Positions 3,021-23,297 of a DNA stretch of 24,000 nucleotides are shown in pieces. The DNA is from a bacterium (lineage in GTDB: Bacteria; Patescibacteriota; Minisyncoccia; Phycocordibacterales; UBA6899). The notes beneath the pieces were generated by a model that saw only the letters and a program-made list of their open reading frames with translations, made no database searches and was not told where the DNA came from. Position 1 is the first letter of the stretch. Each line of letters opens with the position of its first letter. A program made the position numbers and the translations under genes. The DNA lies in contig JAYTYM010000065.1 of the NCBI GenBank assembly GCA_043742365.1, positions 11,909 to 35,908 on the forward strand, written 5' to 3'.

Positions 3021-3057
3021 ATTTATTTCTTAATTACAATTCTTTAGACCTCTCCAG

Positions 3058-3171
3058 TTTACCCTGATACCTACCAAAACAGCATATAGCGGCATTACTT
3101 GCTCACACTAACAAATTACTGACTACTTCACTTTACCCTGATACCTACCAAAACAGCACATAGGGGTATTT
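3058..3171 (-). repeat. Two tandem 74-bp units upstream of tRNA-Lys, each a degenerate copy of the tRNA 5' part
   Basis: 3058-3097 and 3132-3171 share tttaccctgatacctaccaaaacagca(t/c)atag(c/g)gg(c/t)att. Their reverse complements (GCCGCTATATGCTGTTTTGGTAGGTATCAGGG and ACCCCTATGTGCTGTTTTGGTAGGTATCAGGG) align to the tRNA-Lys 5' end GCCCCTATAGCTCAGCTGGTAGAGCAGTAGCC. Confidence 0.55.
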
Positions 3172-3650: not shown

Positions 3651-4136
3651 ATGAAAGATACTGATGTAAAAAATATTCATGTGTTACTTCATGACATCCG
3701 CAGCGCACATAATGTCGGGTCTATGTTTCGTACTGCAGATGCAATAGGGGTAAGCAGTGTCTTCCTTTCAGGTCACACCCCATGCCCACTTGATAGATTC
3801 GGTCGTCCTGTAGCCGAGATTGCGAAGACCGCACTCGGGGCTGAGCAAAGCATAAGCTGGTCTTATGAAAAAGACCCAATTAAAGTCATAACCCAACACA
3901 AGGAATTAGGATATGCCATCGTAGGACTTGAACAAGATGAGCGAGCGGTTGACTATAAACAATTCTCCGCAACAAATAAAGTACTCTTTCTTGTAGGAAG
4001 CGAAGTGTTGGGGATTTCGAGCGAGATTAAAGAGCATTGCGACGTGCTTATCGAGATACCCATGCACGGTAAAAAAGAGTCTCTCAATGTCGCTGTTGCA
4101 TTCGGTATTGCCATGTTTCGACTTTTCGATAAATAA
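3651..4136 (+). CDS. SpoU/TrmH-family RNA 2'-O-methyltransferase
   Basis: SPOUT motifs are present: RSAHNVGSMFRTADAIG, LVGSEVLGIS and IPMHGKKESLNVAVAFGI. Confidence 0.85.
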   Translation: MKDTDVKNIHVLLHDIRSAHNVGSMFRTADAIGVSSVFLSGHTPCPLDRFGRPVAEIAKTALGAEQSISWSYEKDPIKVITQHKELGYAIVGLEQDERAVDYKQFSATNKVLFLVGSEVLGISSEIKEHCDVLIEIPMHGKKESLNVAVAFGIAMFRLFDK

Positions 4137-4149
4137 ATGACTGGGTAAA

Positions 4150-4292
4150 AAAAGAACCCCAATGCATGAGCATCGGGGCGGGAGTGGTTCCTATTTGTTG
4201 TTGCTTTACGCCGCCGTTTCGGGCGGGAGATGGATCACCCCCTTTCTATCGCGGGGAGGGCCCCGCTACCTGACTTTTTTAAGTATATTAAG
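4150..4292 (+). ncRNA. GC-rich structured intergenic segment (candidate small RNA or compound terminator)
   Basis: It lies between convergent genes in an AT-leaning genome. Hairpins are CCCCAATGC/GCATCGGGG, CCGCC-gtttcg-GGCGG and GCGGGG-aggg-CCCCGC, followed 7 nt later by CTTTTTT. GGGCGGGAG occurs twice. No family was recognised. Confidence 0.25.
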
Positions 4293-4305
4293 TCAACGGT
4301 ATCCG

Positions 4306-5589
4306 TCAAGCCCTTTGAGATGAAAGCAACTCCTTAAGTACTTTTCGTGCCACATCGCGGTCATCCCACGGAGTTTTCTTGCCATTCTCCTCCATAATAA
4401 AGGGATCAGTTCCTTTTCCTGTTATGAGTACAGCGGTATTTTGAGAGGCGTTCGCAAGTAGGATTGCATGAGCTATTGCATCTTTGCGGTCAACGATGAG
4501 TTGGGGTTTCTTGCTTTTCATTCCGAGCGCCATTGCTTCCATTATCTGCTTTGGGTCCTCATCGTATGGGTCCTCATTTGTAAGAATAATCTCTTTGCAG
4601 TACTCATCAGCGATACTTCCCATTACCGGCCTTTTCCACGTATCGCGGCCTCCGCCAGTGTTTCCAAGTACGCAGATCTTGTCATGATCTTTGAAAGTCT
4701 CATATACAGCGCGCAAAGAGTCTGGAGTATGCGCGTAATCGACAATTACCGGAAAATCCTGACCCTCTTCGATGCGCTCCATTCGTCCTTCTATCTGAAC
4801 AGTTTTCTCTATGCCACGCACGATCACTTCATCAGAGATATTTAAGGCTCGGGCTGCTGTGGCTGCACCGAGGATATTGTAGGCATTAAAGAGACCCGGT
4901 AGGGGCGAGCGTGCGACATGGCCTCGCCACTCTAGTGTCGTGCCATTTTCAGTTGATTCGACGGCTCCGCCATCATTTATCGCAAATGGAATCGGCGTGA
5001 TGTTGGGTAATTCAAGGAAATAGTGCGCTTTCTTGTCATCGCTATTTGCGACCATGAATCGCTTTGATTTGATTGAGCGACTGAGTGTGCGACCAATAGA
5101 AAGCTTCGCATCACGATAAGCTTCATATGAACCATGTGATTCGATATGCTCTGGTGCGAGGTTGGTGAAGATGAGCATGTCCATGTCTATGAATCGTTGC
5201 CTGAACTGTTTCGCGCCTTCTGAGGTCATCTCAAGTATTGCGTGCGTGCACTCTGCATCGACTGCGTCTCGGATAAATTTTTGTACAAAAAACCGCCCTG
5301 GAATGGTCATCTTGCGCATATTGCGAACACTCTTGTCTCCTATTTTAAAGCGTAGCGTACCTAAGACAGCAGTCTTTGCACCGCTTTCTTCTAGGATGTT
5401 GTTTAATATCTCAGTTGTGCTCGTTTTTCCTTTTGTTCCTGTGACGAGAATGACGCTAATATGTCGTGATGGAAAGCGATAACGCACTGCACCCGCAAGC
5501 GAAAGCAAAAAATGATACGTAGGTTGCAGTGATCGATATACTCGCTTTGGTATCAATGTTTCGATTTTGCGTAGGCTCCTTTCAAGCAT
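4306..5589 (-). CDS. murE: Mur ligase, MurE-like (UDP-MurNAc-tripeptide synthetase)
   Basis: ATP-binding motif VTGTKGKTST is present, along with TNLAPEHIESHG, DYAHTPDSL and TNEDPYDEDP, which are typical of MurE. I prefer the start at ATG 5589 (MLERSL); the alternative at 5634 would overlap the upstream gene. Confidence 0.75.
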   Translation of the reverse strand: MLERSLRKIETLIPKRVYRSLQPTYHFLLSLAGAVRYRFPSRHISVILVTGTKGKTSTTEILNNILEESGAKTAVLGTLRFKIGDKSVRNMRKMTIPGRFFVQKFIRDAVDAECTHAILEMTSEGAKQFRQRFIDMDMLIFTNLAPEHIESHGSYEAYRDAKLSIGRTLSRSIKSKRFMVANSDDKKAHYFLELPNITPIPFAINDGGAVESTENGTTLEWRGHVARSPLPGLFNAYNILGAATAARALNISDEVIVRGIEKTVQIEGRMERIEEGQDFPVIVDYAHTPDSLRAVYETFKDHDKICVLGNTGGGRDTWKRPVMGSIADEYCKEIILTNEDPYDEDPKQIMEAMALGMKSKKPQLIVDRKDAIAHAILLANASQNTAVLITGKGTDPFIMEENGKKTPWDDRDVARKVLKELLSSQRA

Positions 5590-8918: not shown

Positions 8919-9080
8919 ATTATTCATACAGTATAACGGGGAAGAGGGTGAATGCAAAGATGAGAAATGTTGAGATGTGCGTAGTCGTGGAATGGGTGCG
9001 TCATAAAACGCTTTTGACCTAAGTATCCTGAACTCTTCAGTGTGGTCGATTTATAAAATCTTTAATGTCCTAATTTTGCC

Positions 9081-9300
9081 GGGGAAGCTCCATTACATGG
9101 ACGGTACACCTTTCGTATTTCGCACCACGGAGAGTACTTAAAAATTACAGTACTCGAGAGCCGTAGGCACTCGCATTCTTCAAAGTGGATTACCGCTAAG
9201 AAGAATTGGGTCGCTCGATGTCATGTTTAGTCGAAGACGAAATATATTCAAGGTTTTCGATAGGATATCTCTGCTTAAAGCAGAAGTACCTCTTTCCCAT
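9081..9300. repeat. Family-A module, distal copy at the tRNA-Arg(GCG) locus, interrupted
   Basis: 9090-9122 matches 9367-9399 with 1 mismatch in 33 nt. 9232-9261 matches 9398-9427 with 1 mismatch in 30 nt. The two halves are separated by 109 extra nt. Confidence 0.55.
9123..9231. mobile_element. 109-nt insertion in the apex of hairpin 2 of the distal module (family-B-like sequence)
   Basis: The intact paralog reads cgtatttcgaagacgaaata (9391-9410). The interrupted copy reads cgtatttcg-[109 nt]-cgaagacgaaata, with CG on both sides. The insert carries agagtactt-N8-cagtactcgag, which also occurs at 21052-21079. Confidence 0.5.
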
Positions 9301-9330
9301 TTACTAAGGATAAGAATCCTTCATAAATAT

Positions 9331-9466
9331 GGGTGAAGGGCTTCGATTCCTCGATAGGAGTATCTTCCATTACGTGGACGGTACACCTTTCGTATTTCGA
9401 AGACGAAATATACTCAAGGTTTTCGATTCCTATTCAGAAGCCGAGCAGTTGGCTTCTTCTCGGGCA
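9331..9466. repeat. Family-A module, proximal copy at the tRNA-Arg(GCG) locus
   Basis: Minus strand reads TGCCCGA, GAAGAAGCCAACTGCTCGGCTTC hairpin, ATAGGAATCGAAAACCTT, GAGTATATTTCG-tctt-CGAAATACGAAAGG, TGTAC, CCA-CGTAA-TGG, then TCCTATCGAGG (a copy of the tRNA T-stem/acceptor). Confidence 0.6.
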
Positions 9467-11494: not shown

Positions 11495-11603
11495 TTGTCA
11501 CAGTAGAGAGGAGAGAAAGTGCCTCGCGGAACTTTCAGGTGAGATTCGAAAGACTTTTCGATGCCGATTCAGAGAGGCCGAAAAGTACCTGCCGATGTAA
11601 TCG
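11495..11603. repeat. Family-A module, tRNA-Ser copy
   Basis: Plus strand reads GAGAGGAGA, GAAAGTGCCTCGCGGAACTTTC hairpin, AGGTGAGATTCGAAAGAC (revcomp of the T arm), CTTTTCG..CGAAAAG hairpin, TAC, GCCGA-TGTAA-TCGGC, and then direct repeat 2 of the tRNA end. Confidence 0.55.
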
Positions 11604-11604
11604 G

Positions 11605-11683
11605 CGAATCTCACCTCCTCCACATTGGGATAAATTGTTTATATTCGAATGTCACCTCCCCCGCACCGGGACAAAATTTACAG
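11605..11683 (+). repeat. Second and third direct copies of the tRNA-Ser 3' end plus trailer
   Basis: cgaatctcacctcctccGcattgggaCaaattAtttat (11457-) compared with cgaatctcacctcctccAcattgggaTaaattGtttat (11605-). A third, more diverged copy is ttcgaatgtcacctcccccgcaccgggacaaaattt (11644-). Confidence 0.7.
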
Positions 11684-15185: not shown

Positions 15186-15207
15186 CCTACAGACTTGTAT
15201 CGCACGA

Positions 15208-15232
15208 AAGACACTCTTGATGGAGTGTTTTT
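15208..15232 (+). terminator. Intrinsic terminator after the pil cluster
   Basis: ACACTC-ttgatg-GAGTGT is followed by TTTTTGTTTT. Confidence 0.55.
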
Positions 15233-15240
15233 GTTTTCGG

Positions 15241-15378
15241 GTGGGCGATAGAGGATATTCGACCCCTACTGGGTCAGTACACCTTTGCCATTTTTTCAGA
15301 TTAGGAAATCTTCAAAAATAAGGCAGAAGGTTTTCGAATCCTCTAGCGAAAGCCACGCAGGTGGCTTTCTTCGCCCAC
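15241..15378. repeat. Family-A module, tRNA-Val copy (best preserved)
   Basis: 15241-15256 gtgggcgatagaggat is identical to 15408-15423. Minus strand reads GTGGGCG, GAAAGCCAC-ctgc-GTGGCTTTC, TAGAGGATTCGAAAA, CCTTCTGCC...GGCAAAGG, TGTAC, GACCC-agta-GGGGTC, GAATATCCTCTATCGCCCAC. Confidence 0.7.
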
Positions 15379-15408
15379 GACAAAGGCCACCTGACGGTGG
15401 CCTTCTTG
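15379..15408. terminator. Hairpin terminator between the module and tRNA-Val
   Basis: AAGGCCACC-tgac-GGTGGCCTT (15383-15404). Confidence 0.6.
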
Positions 15409-15481
15409 TGGGCGATAGAGGATTCGAACCTCTGACCTTCGCTGTGTAAAAGCGCTGCTCTACCAACTGAGCTAATCGCCC
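15409..15481 (-). tRNA. tRNA-Val (anticodon UAC)
   Basis: Reverse complement is GGGCGAT-TA-GCTC-AGTTGGTA-GAGC-A-GCGCT-TTTACAC-AGCGA-AGGTC-AGAGG-TTCGAAT-CCTCT-ATCGCCC-A. Confidence 0.93.
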
Positions 15482-20478: not shown

Positions 20479-20525
20479 CAATATGACCGCACAAATGCAA
20501 AGCATTTGTGCGGTTTCATATTGTA
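20479..20525. terminator. Long palindromic hairpin after tRNA-Leu(GAG)
   Basis: caatatgaccgcacaaatgc-aaa-gcatttgtgcggtttcatattg, with a small bulge. The palindrome continues outward into the tRNA 3' end and its inverted copy at 20526-20548. Confidence 0.65.
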
Positions 20526-21121
20526 GCCCAAGAGAGGACTTGAAAGACGGAGGCGGTCTACGATTTCGCTTTGCGAAATTGTCGCCGAGTCGGGGTCGCA
20601 AGTACTTATGAGCGAAGCGAATTAGTAACTTGTGACCAAGTCCTCTACAGGCACTTTCGCGAGAGGACTTGAAAACCTTGGTGCGACCAAATTTTTCTTT
20701 GATGTCCTCATCTTAGAAAAATTGAAGTACTCTTGTGGTGATGTTTTGGCTTTGCAAAACCACCAAGGTGTACCGTCCCCGTAGGGGAAAAGTCCTAACT
20801 TGAAAGACGGAGCCTATGTTTCGCCAGCGACCAAAAACTCTTGAGCGTAGCGATTAGAGATTTGAAGTACTCCTGTGGTGCATGCGAAACCGCGAGCGAC
20901 ATTATTTGCTTATGAGCTAGCGAATTTAGCAAATAAGACGTGCCTGTGGCGCGGGGTCGCAGAAATTTCTGAGCGACCAAAAGTATGCGACCAGAGTGAG
21001 ATAAAATTGGAAGCACTCTTTGTGGTGTGGCGACAAAAAAATATCACTACAAGAGTACTTCCAAATTTCAGTACTCGAGGACACGATGAAGTTTTAGGTC
21101 GCTGTGACAAAGTCCTCCACA
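20526..21121. repeat. Series of three tRNA-Leu(GAG)-linked modules (families A and B), each ending in a copy of the T-arm 3' half
   Basis: AAGTCCT(C/A) occurs at 20462 (the tRNA), 20638, 20790 and 21110. The inverted tRNA end tagcccaagagaggacttgaa is at 20526. The 15-mer acttgaaagacggag is at 20538 and 20798. gcgaccaaa..ttgaagtactcYtgtggtg recurs with a period of about 145 bp. Confidence 0.6.
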
Positions 21122-21149: not shown

Positions 21150-21671
21150 CTATTCACTGACTACAGTTACAAATTCAACTGCCGTCTTTGGTTCCACAAA
21201 GAACTTTTCTGTTTGTGTATAGCGAACTCCTTGAATCTGCGGCTTTTCTTTTAATAGCGCTTCTTTGTCGATGGATTCTATGTTGCGGATATATTTCGTC
21301 AGCTCAAGACTCTTGAGAATGTCTAGGATCTTTTCATCGCCGCCACGTCCGGCAGTCACCTTAGGCGGAGTCAGTCTCCACCCGAATATCCCCGAAGAAA
21401 GAGTGACTGTTTTCTTGTCGGCAGCAAGTAATTCTTGCCGATGCTTCACTGCGAATAGTTTGATATTCACTACATGATTTGCAGTTTGTGCCTGAAGTGG
21501 TTTTATCGCCGCATCTGCTTCTTGGCGCAATGTCGCAACTTTTTCTGCAAGTTCGCGTTCGATAGTTTCGGTTGAGCGTACCAGAATACCCACAATGTGT
21601 AGGACGCCATTTGCCTCATCGATGTTTTGTATAGGATGAATAGGGGTCGATTTTTTTGCTCGGCTCATCAT
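21150..21671 (-). CDS. gam: Phage Mu Gam-like host-nuclease inhibitor (DNA-end-binding) protein
   Basis: 173 aa. The segment GIFGWRLTPPKVTAGRGGDEKILDILKSLELTKYIRNIESIDKEALLKEKP parallels Mu Gam GDVSWRVRPPSVSIRGMDAVMETLERLGLQRFIRTKQEINKEAILLEP (recalled from memory). The N-terminal half is coiled-coil. Confidence 0.8.
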   Translation of the reverse strand: MMSRAKKSTPIHPIQNIDEANGVLHIVGILVRSTETIERELAEKVATLRQEADAAIKPLQAQTANHVVNIKLFAVKHRQELLAADKKTVTLSSGIFGWRLTPPKVTAGRGGDEKILDILKSLELTKYIRNIESIDKEALLKEKPQIQGVRYTQTEKFFVEPKTAVEFVTVVSE

Positions 21672-21811
21672 ATGCTCCTCGTCGGAAATTCAAAAGAATA
21701 CTCCATAATGTATATTTGCATACACTAATGATTCTGCCGTGAATTCTCCTTGCACTTTTCACGTTGAAGAGTAGTTTATGTGCAGGCTCTTTTTTATATT
21801 AAGGATGAACA

Positions 21812-22834
21812 ATGGAAACGAACATCGTCTCTCTGCCGCACATCACGCAATACCACGCTTCGATCCAGAATCCACACTTTGACGTTGATCTCGTTACAAC
21901 GAACATTTTTGAAAAGCACGGGCAAGTGATAATGATCGATCCAAGGCGGGTGCAGCCGCTGTCTGATCAGCCTCGCCAAAGCTCGAACCCCGGATTCAGT
22001 CTCGAGTCGATTGCCGCACTTTCGATGTGTATTAGTGCTGAAGGCCAGATCGAACCGGCACTCATTGCTCCGCCGACCAAGTCGGGGTGGGACGCAGCTC
22101 TCGTTGATGGCGAACGCAGGCATCGCGCGTGCCTGCATGGCAACATGATGCTTATGGCGCGCGTTGACTTGAGCATCACGAACCCAGAAGAGCACTTCGT
22201 GAAATCAGTGATGGCCAATTTCCACAGGGAAGGCCATACGTGCATCGAGATCATGTATGCGGTTAAGCGTATGCAGACAACTCGCACGAGAGAGCAGATC
22301 GCTACCGTCTTTGGTCGCTCTGTGCAATGGGTGGATCTACATATCTCGCTCATGCGACTCGACGAAGCGCTACACCCATTTCTTGTCGATCAAGAAGTAG
22401 AGCAAGAGGGTGATGGCACAGGCGAGCAAGTCGAAATCAAAAAGCGAGGTCGCAAGCAAACGGGTAAGCTGACATTTCAGCTCGCTCTTGTTATTTCTGG
22501 TTTGCCCAAAAGCGATCAGATGAATGTCGCCAAGGAGGTGCTTGGTAAACGAATGCCCTACGATGTAGCCCGCAGATACGTATTGCGCTATATCGACGAC
22601 AACGGCATTGTTACGAAATATTCGAAGCGTTCGCCGAGCGAGTCATTTCAGTCGCTTGAAAAAGCGGCTGGTACCGCTGAAAATAAATTTGGTGTTTTCA
22701 TCGACAAGAATCCGCGCACACTTCGTGAACTTTTTGATACTCAGTCCCCGATGGACCGTAGATTGCTTGCAGAAAAGCTCCGACTTCTAAGTGTAGATAT
22801 TTCGTCACTTGCGGATATCCTGTCACCTCAGTGA
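21812..22834 (+). CDS. ParB/Sulfiredoxin N-terminal domain protein with HTH (ParB/KorB-like); no ParA partner
   Basis: A ParB box is present (ALVDGERRHRAC). An HTH-like segment follows (TREQIATVFGRSVQWVDLHISLMRL). Length is 340 aa. It is transcribed divergently from gam. Confidence 0.75.
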   Translation: METNIVSLPHITQYHASIQNPHFDVDLVTTNIFEKHGQVIMIDPRRVQPLSDQPRQSSNPGFSLESIAALSMCISAEGQIEPALIAPPTKSGWDAALVDGERRHRACLHGNMMLMARVDLSITNPEEHFVKSVMANFHREGHTCIEIMYAVKRMQTTRTREQIATVFGRSVQWVDLHISLMRLDEALHPFLVDQEVEQEGDGTGEQVEIKKRGRKQTGKLTFQLALVISGLPKSDQMNVAKEVLGKRMPYDVARRYVLRYIDDNGIVTKYSKRSPSESFQSLEKAAGTAENKFGVFIDKNPRTLRELFDTQSPMDRRLLAEKLRLLSVDISSLADILSPQ

Positions 22835-22909: not shown

Positions 22910-22991
22910 TGGGCGTGGGGAGACTCGAACTCCCAACCCTTACGGGATACGCTTCTGAGACGTACGCGTATACCAATTCCGCCACACGCCC
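22910..22991 (-). tRNA. tRNA-Leu (anticodon CAG), long variable arm
   Basis: Reverse complement: acceptor GGGCGTG/CACGCCC, anticodon arm TACGT-CTCAGAA-GCGTA, variable arm TCCCGTAAGGGTT, T arm GGGAGTTCGAGTCTCCC. Confidence 0.92.
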
Positions 22992-22993
22992 AC

Positions 22994-23297
22994 TCACCAC
23001 ACAAACTTTCTATACTCCGCTCCTGAGACGTACGCGACTATATTCTTTTGCAATTCCCCCACACGCCCACTCACCACACAAACTTTCTATACTCCGCTCC
23101 TGAGACGTACGCGACCATATTTATTTGCAGTTCCTCCTCACACTCACTGCACAAGTTCTCTATGATTACGTTTATTAGACGTAAGCGACTATATTCTTTT
23201 GCAATTTCACCACAAACCCAGATGTTCCAATAACATTTATGCTTCGATTCTAAGGCGTACGAGACCTCATTCTTTGGCAGTTCCCCCTTCTAGTCAC
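22994..23297 (-). repeat. Tandem array (4 units, 74-77 bp) of degenerating copies of the tRNA-Leu(CAG) upstream spacer plus 5' two-thirds
   Basis: Units start at 23023, 23100, 23174 and 23250, and each resembles 22955-22993 of the real gene. The 29-nt spacer tcaccacacaaactttctatactccgctc is identical at 22994 and 23071. Similarity decays with distance from the gene. Confidence 0.75.

Follow-up and report, generated by a model that had tools for sequence, protein, structure and literature searches.

Miniature inverted-repeat transposable elements (MITEs), REPINs and Correia-type repeats constitute families with fixed terminal inverted repeats of their own, short fixed target duplications and near-identical copies originating from recent bursts. 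CTX-type phages, with a genome of several kilobases, are directed to a single dif site by the enzyme XerCD. Integron attC sites are imperfect palindromes, conserved in structure and not in sequence, which are detectable with covariance models (IntegronFinder, PMC4889954), and the TIGR-Tas systems, which are present in Parcubacteria, are characterized by unusual dual-spacer guide RNAs (PMC12045711). In the current work, a stretch of 24,000 nucleotides (hereafter referred to as the window) from a bacterium of the lineage Patescibacteriota; Minisyncoccia; Phycocordibacterales; UBA6899 (assembly GCA_043742365.1, contig JAYTYM010000065.1, positions 11,909 to 35,908 of the forward strand) was analyzed, focusing on a structured unit located behind its tRNA-Val gene, the outer arms of which are an inverted and a direct copy of the 3′ end of that same gene. 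The unit belongs to a real and widespread family which is apparently undescribed, a search of a library of papers having yielded no description of such an element. Positions refer to the window unless preceded by an L-number (L121, L075 and so on), these numbers being the labels of the compared loci or contigs.

The original prediction, made from the sequence alone, had claimed a 168-bp module behind tRNA-Val, delimited by an exact 16-nt copy of the tRNA tail and with a defined order of parts when read in tRNA sense. The repeat was retrieved as claimed, the 16-mer gtgggcgatagaggat being present at both 15241-15256 and 15408-15423; the latter copy corresponds, as read on the plus strand, to the 3′ strands of the T stem and acceptor stem of tRNA-Val, together with its discriminator and one additional base. 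An exact 16-mer repeat has an expectation of ~0.1 in 24 kb by our own estimate and is, on its own, not very improbable; a gapped pattern of the core gave two matches in the window and none in 100 shuffles, and the architecture of the module is far beyond chance. This architecture follows exactly the order that had been described, and coordinates could be assigned to each of its parts (Table 1). The last ~16-22 nt of tRNA-Val represent the sequence that is copied in both arms, i.e. in an inverted (antisense) copy X′, made up of the segments X′acc and X′T, and in a direct copy X, which here contains a 2-nt AT bulge and whose final 16 nt form the exact repeat. Hairpin 1 (h1) interrupts the antisense arm exactly at the boundary between acceptor and T stem; it is optional in the family (there is none in L041 and L097), as is the hairpin following the tRNA, designated hairpin 0 in this unit. 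The length of 168 bp is right for the inserted block, which includes the 29-nt hairpin 0, and not for the folded module, which comprises 138 nt. The latter folds (z = -7.3 as RNA and -8.7 as DNA) into a closing helix X′acc:X, hairpin 1 and a helix X′T:X, followed by a three-way junction with hairpins 2 and 3. As a separate observation, hairpin 0 (GAAGGCCACC...GGTGGCCTT, 15379-15407) resembles hairpin 1 (GAAAGCCAC...GTGGCTTTC, 15346-15370), as if duplicated.

Table 1. Coordinates of the parts of the unit behind tRNA-Val, of the other modules in the window and of alternative cores.
Feature	Position	Strand	Basis or remark
tRNA-Val(UAC)	15408-15481	minus	ARAGORN; Rfam tRNA model 71 bits; CCA not encoded
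Hairpin 0, AAGAAGGCCACC-GTCA-GGTGGCCTT	15379-15407 (29 nt)	minus	between tRNA-Val and antisense arm; sequence
X′acc, GTGGGCGA	15371-15378	minus	reverse complement of acceptor 3′ strand, discriminator and next base
Hairpin 1 (h1), 9-bp stem	15346-15370	minus	minimum-energy fold; family folds
X′T, TAGAGGATTCGAA	15333-15345	minus	reverse complement of T-stem 3′ strand and T loop; followed by AA
Hairpin 2	15282-15330	minus	base conserved and covarying, interior variable
Junction strand TGTACTG	15275-15281	minus	family consensus GGUGUACUG; invariant columns in alignment A2, partly fixed by the search patterns used
Hairpin 3, GACCC-AGTA-GGGGTC	15261-15275	minus	family loop U-GUA-A
X (tail copy), GAATATCCTCTATCGCCCAC	15241-15260	minus	direct copy of T-loop end, T-stem 3′ strand and acceptor 3′ strand
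Ancestral flank and terminator-like hairpin CACTCC...GAGTG	15204-15228	minus	orthologous to the sequence directly after tRNA-Val in L121
tRNA-Lys(UUU) module	2810-2916	minus	R1 match 2805-2891, 42.7 bits
tRNA-Arg(GCG) module 1	9349-9466	minus	R1 match 9349-9436, 62.7 bits
tRNA-Arg(GCG) module 2, divergent core	9257-9348	minus	R1 match 9254-9348, 21.7 bits
tRNA-Arg(GCG) module 3	9087-9265	minus	partial R1 match 9073-9167, 13 bits; repeat families D2, D5, D6
tRNA-Ser(UGA) module, 'GAAAGACUUUUC...GAAAAGUACC' sub-variant	11503-11623	plus	R1 match 11536-11621, 29.5 bits; repeat family D4
tRNA-Leu(GAG) type-1 module	20650-20802	plus	R1 match 20660-20805, 27 bits
tRNA-Leu(GAG) unit with different, type 2 core	20523-20646	plus	same kind of arms at both ends; sequence, relatives
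Type 2 cores	window 20523-20646, 20799-20880; L075 5540-6040; L235 560-700; L028, L037, L041, L077, L085, L286		
Third core (AGGGTTTYCATTRTCG...GAGAYTGAARACCACCYGCGGCGG) behind tRNA-Arg(GCG)	L319 880-1016; L320 3726-3900; L322 3269-3440		after hairpin-X′acc-h1-X′T

The orthologous tRNA loci were compared in L121, a syntenic contig whose proteins are ~87% identical to those of the window. In this contig tRNA-Val, which is identical in sequence to that of the window, is followed directly by CCAGAGACAGAGGCACTCCGTAGGAGTG (CC-AGAGACAGAGG-CACTCC...GGAGTG), constituting a clean empty site from which hairpin 0 is also missing, and L124 is likewise empty at tRNA-Val. The equivalent flank of the window, CCGAAAACAAAAACACTCCATCAAGAGTG (CC-GAAAACAAAAA-CACTCC...GAGTG), comes after X, 168 bp further on. 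Hairpin 0 is unrelated to the ancestral trailer and flank, and the tRNA-Val block therefore arrived as a whole. tRNA-Ser is also empty in L121, where the orthologous flank corresponds to the one carried by the third and most decayed tail copy of the window; the hairpin at this tRNA is built of the ancestral trailer and its inverted copy. At tRNA-Leu(GAG) a module is present in both genomes, with only the window having a unit of a second type (type 2, see below) in front of it and a 57-nt insertion in its hairpin 2. Clean empty sites, not decaying duplicates of whole tRNA genes, are what was found in these relatives. The block, consisting of the hairpin, the inverted copy X′ (usually split by h1), the three-way-junction core and the direct copy X, is present or absent as one, the tRNA stays intact, and the ancestral downstream flank follows the distal X.

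Further copies were retrieved with a covariance model, R1, comprising 36 members and built on the base of hairpin 2 and on hairpin 3. In the window R1 detects seven copies, all on the tRNA-sense strand and directly behind five of the seven tRNAs, the Val copy scoring 69 bits (E = 9e-17). The recurrence that had been predicted behind tRNA-Lys, tRNA-Arg(GCG), tRNA-Ser and tRNA-Leu(GAG) is borne out by these matches, except that tRNA-Arg(GCG) is followed by three copies and not by two. Beyond the window the architecture is present in at least ~170 further copies, all of them in genomes or metagenome contigs of Patescibacteria (the candidate phyla radiation, CPR). A pattern scan of one genome per species gave 120 loci, of which a sequence profile keeps 42 matches at E < 1e-8; two of these are the Val and Arg copies of the window itself, and the others belong to Patescibacteria (Saccharibacteria-labelled, Paceibacteria, Kaiser-, Zambryski-, Nomura-, Woese- and Taylorbacteria) or to metagenome-assembled genomes (MAGs) labelled just 'bacterium'. 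The profile splits the loci cleanly, the remaining ones being chance matches in the coding DNA of other phyla. A scan of metagenome contigs, anchored solely on the 3′ part of the core, provided at least 123 modules in at least 120 loci, all metagenome figures given here and below referring to the matches listed.

The association with tRNA genes is strand-specific. A same-strand tRNA ends 66-191 nt upstream of the 3′ core in 71 of the 123 metagenome modules, compared with 2.5% by chance, and an opposite-strand tRNA in none, so that the modules are clearly enriched at tRNA flanks. As to the unlinked rest, 15 modules lie too near contig ends, ~9 are second units of tandem arrays, and several more are situated behind group I intron tRNAs missed by ARAGORN, or behind islands. 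For ~27 of the 37 modules in the genome set, the end of a same-strand tRNA lies 37-88 nt upstream. The tRNAs preceding modules represent at least 27 anticodon types, and even among 81 bystander tRNAs of the same metagenome contigs, nine (11%, against 0.4% in the control) have the reverse complement of their own end at most 140 nt downstream, the modules of these nine having variant cores. Intron-bearing tRNA genes were observed adjoining modules in L205 (9839-10101; RF00028, 65.5 bits), L216 and L058, and a LAGLIDADG-like open reading frame (ORF) family occurs in eight of the metagenome loci.

No family of Rfam 15, small self-cleaving ribozymes included, matches the module: across the window and 17 loci, the gathering score is attained just by tRNA and by a single group I intron, and in E-value mode on 15200-15420 the best match has an E-value of 0.32, all matches lying far below gathering scores. 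The viral collection holds no copy, the 72 loci of its scan all being chance matches in coding DNA, and an origin as a phage or plasmid attP was rejected on this basis. A true or decaying tRNA gene was equally rejected, considering that ARAGORN and the Rfam tRNA model call just the seven real tRNAs and that the left arm contains the reverse complement of a T loop and no T arm. The view that neither a fixed-sequence MITE, nor a true tRNA gene, nor a plain att duplication is sufficient to account for the module is one that we share with the original prediction.

The terminal segments had been proposed to follow the local tRNA, and this is the case for both arms, whose cognate matches lie far above those to other tRNAs. 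X is identical to the last 14 nt of its own tRNA at all 14 positions in 30 of the 71 tRNA-linked modules (median 11, as compared with a mean of 4.6 for other tRNAs), and X′acc matches the end of its own tRNA at seven or more of eight bases in 39 of the 71 (4.7% for non-cognate ends), each of the two tracking its tRNA independently. Among 51 modules, X′acc is directly preceded on its 5′ side by TGG in only one and by the first three bases of the trailer, in reverse-complemented form, in 34. The spacer between tRNA and X′acc, with a median of 36 nt, is itself palindromic, its arms having a median identity of 0.84 (0.56 in shuffled sequence), and the sequence (tRNA end and trailer)-loop-(trailer complement and X′) constitutes one continuous near-perfect inverted repeat, from which it follows that the arms were made from gene DNA and not from mature CCA-ended tRNA. 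When nine acceptor positions were compared in 66 modules, X′ alone was found to differ from the tRNA at 79 and X alone at 50, and the two agreed against the tRNA, as expected for a compensated change, at just one. Considering that the differences are independent and that a single position is compensated, the arms represent drifting copies of the gene end and not a helix kept by compensation, and X′:X as a selected helix was rejected.

The orientation of the inner segment of the antisense arm is apparent from the Lys copy, in which X′T reads GCTCGAA versus TTCGAGC in the tRNA and thus truly reverse-complements the loop; a direct-orientation T arm with a loop insertion was rejected, given that T loops which are not palindromes show up in this reversed form. 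The tail copy often contains a 1-2 nt bulge or an extra covarying mini-hairpin, and the direct duplication is variable, spanning 16-46 bp (up to 46 nt in L053). Neither TCGAAAACCTT nor CCTT/AAGG, which the original prediction had regarded as kept between loci, is invariant across the family, the 5′ junction in the unbiased set being TCGAA-(A/G)A-(C/G)C-TT.

The core, in turn, is kept by compensatory change and is under structural selection on the tRNA-sense strand. RNAalifold applied to the seed alignment identified four hairpin 3 positions with many double changes. In an alignment of 121 distinct metagenome sequences, fitted to R1 and with its 3′ side partly fixed by the search pattern, 91.7% of cells are standard pairs (72.0% when shuffled), 246 cells are changed on both sides (69 when shuffled) and the covariation score is 0.438 (0.102 when shuffled); none of 500 shuffles reaches the observed value for pairing, double changes or covariation, the scores lying far above these controls, and sliding the partners by 1-3 columns reduces pairing to 30-54%. 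Double changes are present in seven of seven pairs of helix 1 (the base of hairpin 2) and in five of six pairs of hairpin 3, in which 97.9% of cells are paired. Of 114 metagenome modules, 93 have their lower minimum free energy on the tRNA-sense strand (mean difference 5.2 kcal/mol, p = 7e-15), in agreement with the genome set (28/36 and 32/36), G·U pairs amount to 6.1% on this strand versus 4.0% on the other, and purine-rich tandem G·A motifs and conserved loops read sensibly only in this sense. Such strand-biased folding fits an RNA or a single DNA strand alike. Two known folds were tried on the core and rejected: a TIGR-like box C/D or K-turn made up of both junction strands, because CUGA has its G and A in Watson-Crick pairs, with the A covarying inside hairpin 3, and a hammerhead, because by inspection the order of junction strands (GAAA-like, long strand, none) fits neither strand.

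Different cores are enclosed by the same arms. Within inverted and direct tRNA-tail arms of the kind described above, the type 2 core runs AGACGGAGGCGG-hairpin-CCGAGUCGGGGUCGC-hairpin with GAGCGAAGCGAA apex-GUGACC, its left boundary lying directly behind GAA and its right boundary directly behind GUGACC, and composite forms exist in which the 5′ domain of type 2 is joined to hairpins 2 and 3 of type 1. Behind tRNA-Arg(GCG), a third core without relation to the others is enclosed by the same arms and h1 in more distant relatives (~73-78% identity). At this same tRNA, L321 (GCA_964469335.1, CAYXYK010000001.1) contains at 3651-5245 a gene whose 517-aa product is a large serine recombinase with Resolvase, Recombinase and Zn_ribbon_recom domains. 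This gene is the first part of an inserted element which begins exactly at the tRNA 3′ end and is structurally unrelated to the modules; L320 and L322, whose neighbouring protein is identical to that of L321, have a module at tRNA-Arg(GCG) instead.

Units stack in serial arrays, with the most decayed copies furthest from the tRNA, and tandem identical units are present in L252, L257 and L295. The L075 array consists of tRNA-Glu, three type 2 units, a unit with two small membrane ORFs, a type 1 unit and the start of another; L235 carries a type-2-like unit, a 1791-aa surface-protein ORF and a type 1 module whose arms mismatch the local tRNA-Gln, and L067 contains a 2.9-kb island. Every unit of these arrays and islands ends in a copy of the acceptor 3′ strand, and the ORF cargo is bounded by the same junctions. 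No ORF is located inside the type 1 unit, and the islands of L067, L075 and L235 encode no integrase or recombinase. Among the ORFs neighbouring 35 genome and 120 metagenome loci, the search being restricted to these neighbourhoods, no recombinase, transposase or reverse transcriptase family is enriched, the clusters obtained being just housekeeping genes, surface or pilin-like cargo and LAGLIDADG-like ORFs. ORF-bearing units were also seen to have a variant tail, in which a T-loop-like GTTCYRA in a small hairpin is followed by 6-12 unrelated bases and the acceptor 3′ strand; this tail precedes the usual hairpin and a type 1 module in L035, L067, L075 (4830-4870), L077, L220, L235 (6900-6925), L253, L268, L270, L273, L294 and L314.

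The reading which we favour, and to which we would give a little less than an even chance, is that the unit represents a non-coding, non-autonomous insertion cassette that is aimed at the 3′ end of the cognate tRNA gene and has a structurally selected core. Among the three possibilities put forward in the original prediction, the tiny non-autonomous integrative element is accordingly the one best supported, by the empty sites of L121 with their equivalent flank, by the arrays and, as regards non-autonomy, by the lack of an ORF inside the unit and of an enriched recombinase in the neighbourhoods searched. Recombination within the final ~14-25 bp of the tRNA gene would install the unit, which would bring a replacement tail, so that the tRNA would be rebuilt and the old tail displaced downstream. 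X′ could pair with the neighbouring X on a single strand, of either DNA or a read-through transcript, so as to produce a double-strand-like image of the tRNA gene end, and this X′:X fold, together with the conserved junction and loop motifs, might be read by a trans-encoded enzyme or by the host recombination machinery. Such a folded-site mechanism is suggested by analogy with integron attC and with the folded attP of CTX phages.

Several points weigh against the insertion cassette. No enzyme was identified in the neighbourhoods searched, no excised or circular form was seen, and the family is absent from the viral collection. The polymorphism observed with L121 could equally have arisen through loss, the two direct copies having recombined with each other. 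In a cut-and-paste or integrase model the arms travel with the element, which leaves the sharing of cores across more than 27 tRNA types unexplained; fold-back copying of the local gene end, as suggested by the continuous palindrome, is a speculative source of arms for new tRNAs. The interior of hairpin 2 is only ~27% identical between random members, and core identity among copies at different tRNAs is 0.518 within a contig and 0.526 between contigs; given this low identity and the lack of within-contig likeness, the family must be old, having diverged while its structure was kept, much as attC sites or non-coding RNAs do, with no sign of recent MITE-type bursts. Core folding, subject to an ascertainment caveat, does not fall with arm decay, and cores that are still folded where the arms have drifted hint at a function in place. 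That cores evolve in concert within a genome, an idea derived from one MAG, was not supported in the larger set by the same identity values.

Considering the gaps regarding enzyme and excision, and the cores that are folded despite drifted arms, the main rival is an RNA used by the host, transcribed in tRNA sense (e.g. by read-through from the tRNA promoter) and linked to each tRNA, which arrived by insertion. We consider such a structured RNA possible and rather unlikely. Its ends would be trimmed by tRNA-processing enzymes, X′:X would imitate the acceptor/T-stem minihelix of the cognate tRNA, the arms being built from local sequence, and the three-way junction would do the work, by binding a protein or ligand or by acting on the tRNA. 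The topology X′acc-hairpin 1-X′T...X is indeed that of a tRNA (acceptor stem, a hairpin for positions 8-48, T stem), and strong covariation of the core combined with deep sequence divergence, the sense-strand bias in folding and in G·U pairs, and the strict orientation relative to the tRNA all argue for an RNA, as do unpaired motifs kept across distant lineages (J1, J2, the hairpin 3 loop UGUAA and the hairpin 1 loops), to which the loop of the extra mini-hairpin and the tandem G·A motifs of hairpin 2 can be added, these also being kept across very distant lineages. Yet the unit is dispensable between relatives and present behind only some tRNAs, tandem identical, truncated and nested-insertion copies are common, the same arms are found around unrelated cores, no compensation maintains the X′:X helix, and no promoter-like site was found, a hairpin or terminator being located between tRNA and module. 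The trailer or antisense RNA pairing with the tRNA, as originally proposed, is weakened in a similar manner: the sense-strand folding and the covarying core speak for its RNA component, while the antisense arm drifts uncompensated and the unit can be dispensed with. The insertion cassette and the host-used RNA are compatible readings and not mutually exclusive.

The remaining explanations are all improbable. A relic of an IS200/IS605 (HUH) single-strand-DNA transposon, or its guide RNA, inserting 3′ of the T-loop motif TTCGA, would explain the strand-specific folding, the hairpins near both ends (hairpins 0 and 3 then being subterminal end hairpins) and the position of the core boundaries at T-loop sequence, directly after TCGAA on the left and directly before TCGA on the right; the distal tail copy would be a flank read as guide in the manner of a TnpB right-end RNA, and flank-derived guides of IS605/TnpB automatically match their site by way of the local flank. 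IS200/IS605 elements, however, generate no target duplication, whereas 16-46 bp are duplicated here; the inverted arm X′ has no counterpart in such elements, a guide equal to an intact tRNA gene end would target the rebuilt tRNA itself, no TnpA, TnpB or IscB gene is present among the neighbouring ORFs, and no Rfam family matches the module, which makes us consider this origin quite unlikely. Marginally less credible still is a functionless by-product of repair or replication at tRNA terminators, with fold-back copying yielding the inverted arm and unequal crossing-over the arrays. The continuous palindrome formed by tRNA end, trailer and complement, the tRNA-Ser hairpin and the tandem identical units of L252, L257 and L295 would be expected from such a process, which, however, can account neither for a core whose structure has been conserved through hundreds of compensatory changes in distant Patescibacteria and behind at least 27 types of tRNA, nor for the hairpin of tRNA-Val, which is unrelated to the ancestral trailer in a block that arrived whole. 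The least probable of all, and practically to be discounted, is a primer-binding site, also among the proposals of the original prediction, in which the antisense arm would anneal to the 3′ end of mature tRNA and prime reverse transcription of a retroelement. While this arm has ~20 nt of complementarity to the 3′ end of the tRNA, it is interrupted by hairpin 1 and no reverse transcriptase is located nearby, and the reading was rejected because TGG, the complement of CCA, is absent in all but the single module mentioned above, the arm running into the complement of the trailer instead.

The window itself has a G+C content of 45.7%, and none of its seven tRNA genes encodes CCA. The gene content, with adenylate kinase, RuvA, RuvX, PilM-like, UppS, RluD, L19 and S20, is typical for a member of the Patescibacteria, the nearest named relatives of one of its proteins being Candidatus Lloydbacteria. 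With regard to the other modules of the window (Table 1), that of tRNA-Lys has variant junctions and a truncated distal tail copy which ends after the T-stem, and the hairpin 2 of tRNA-Arg(GCG) module 3 is split by a nested 108-nt insertion (9123-9230). Behind the tRNA-Ser module two more, increasingly decayed copies of the tRNA end are located at 11624-11683, the last being orthologous to the tRNA end of L121. The nested insertion in hairpin 2 of the tRNA-Leu(GAG) type 1 module (57 nt) spans 20684-20740, the uninterrupted orthologue being L121 8123-8209. Both nested insertions are situated at the hairpin 2 apex and end in ...GAAGTACTC(T/C)(T/C)GTGGTG, and related strings, with AGTACT, recur at 9131-9158 and 20716-21079.

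Repeats are also present on the 5′ side of tRNA genes. Upstream of the minus-strand tRNA-Leu-CAG, the region 22974-23296 contains tandem units of ~77 nt, each consisting of a leader and a pseudo 5′ half of the adjacent tRNA, which has an altered D arm and extends from the 5′ strand of the acceptor stem as far as the anticodon loop. Such 5′-side tandem units, also located upstream of tRNA-Lys (3047-3170, 74 nt) and in L121 8908-9263, constitute a mirror-image phenomenon of the 3′ modules and are conserved between the window and L121. Between tRNA-Leu(GAG) and tRNA-Leu(CAG), the region 21150-22834 contains two genes, one of them Mu Gam-like (PF07352, E = 3e-25) and the other with a ParB N-terminal-like domain, and is probably a small island or prophage remnant, L121 having just a small helix-turn-helix gene at this position.

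The CPR/Patescibacteria represent a large share of bacterial diversity, with tiny genomes, few recognised mobile elements and almost no cultured members, and a module behind many tRNA genes of such bacteria consequently amounts to a sizeable amount of unexplained biology. It is conceivable, although we would not count on it, that the Patescibacteria possess a tRNA-anchored cassette system, in which tRNA 3′ ends would capture and stack small structured units, and sometimes genes, by way of a machinery that reads a single-stranded fold with an image of the target. By analogy, such a system may be a tRNA-templated, sequence-programmable counterpart of attC or of RNA-guided recombination, in which the three-way-junction core may act as the enzyme handle. 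If this is true, tRNA ends would allow a safe uptake of accessory genes, including those for surface proteins such as the 1791-aa ORF of L235, and a recombination mechanism programmed by copies of the target could be exposed. If the RNA reading is true, a new and widespread class of RNA with a tRNA-specific address would be at hand. We are doubtful, without dismissing it, that the family is something categorically new, which would be either a tRNA-anchored cassette system with a target-mimicking fold or a new tRNA-addressed RNA class. Independently of this, R1 is a practical annotation tool, and the palindromes explain likely assembly breaks beside tRNA genes in MAGs.

A comparison with known systems places the unit between several of them. 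MITEs, REPINs and Correia-type repeats are likewise small, non-coding, hairpin-forming, multicopy and non-autonomous, whereas the inverted repeats found here are the target's own sequence at each locus, the duplication measures 16-46 bp and the copies are ~50% identical. The X′:X arrangement shares with tRNA-like structures (the viral 3′ type, tmRNA and those of the mascRNA type) an acceptor stem, a T stem, a discriminator and a hairpin in place of positions 8-48; here, however, an extended helix and a three-way junction take the place of the T loop, there is no compensation, and no CCA is encoded. Guide RNAs (IS110 bridge, IS605 right-end and TIGR-Tas) similarly combine a conserved scaffold with variable segments matching both strands of a DNA target, but the segments of the present unit are fully complementary to each other instead of offset and measure at least 20 nt, and no Nop/Tas, IS110 or TnpB gene is adjacent.

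The resemblance to systems of site-specific recombination extends further. tRNA-targeting integrative elements and their integrase-less derivatives, the cis-mobilizable elements (CIMEs), also present a direct repeat of the tRNA 3′ end, a rebuilt tRNA, accretion arrays, presence/absence polymorphism and empty sites; the units described here differ in comprising just ~140-170 bp, in sharing a structured core across many tRNAs, in containing an extra inverted copy of the target, and in that no cognate integrase was found in the units or their neighbourhoods. The attP of CTX-type phages, members of the integrative mobile elements exploiting Xer (IMEX), contains an inverted, target-like pair that can fold into a double-strand-like copy of the target, as X′ and X are proposed to do. 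From integrons the modules are distinguished by their host, the Patescibacteria, by arrays which start at a tRNA gene, with many such primary sites per genome, by the absence of intI or another tyrosine recombinase from the module neighbourhoods, and by the absence of the R-boxes RYYYAAC/GTTRRRY, the outer arms being locus-specific local acceptor sequence. In common with integron cassettes, they are promoter-less units, some with one ORF and some with none, stacked in one orientation behind a fixed primary site, and in common with attC they maintain structure over sequence and fold on one strand, with a bulge or mini-hairpin on one strand of the stem and hairpin 1 on the other.

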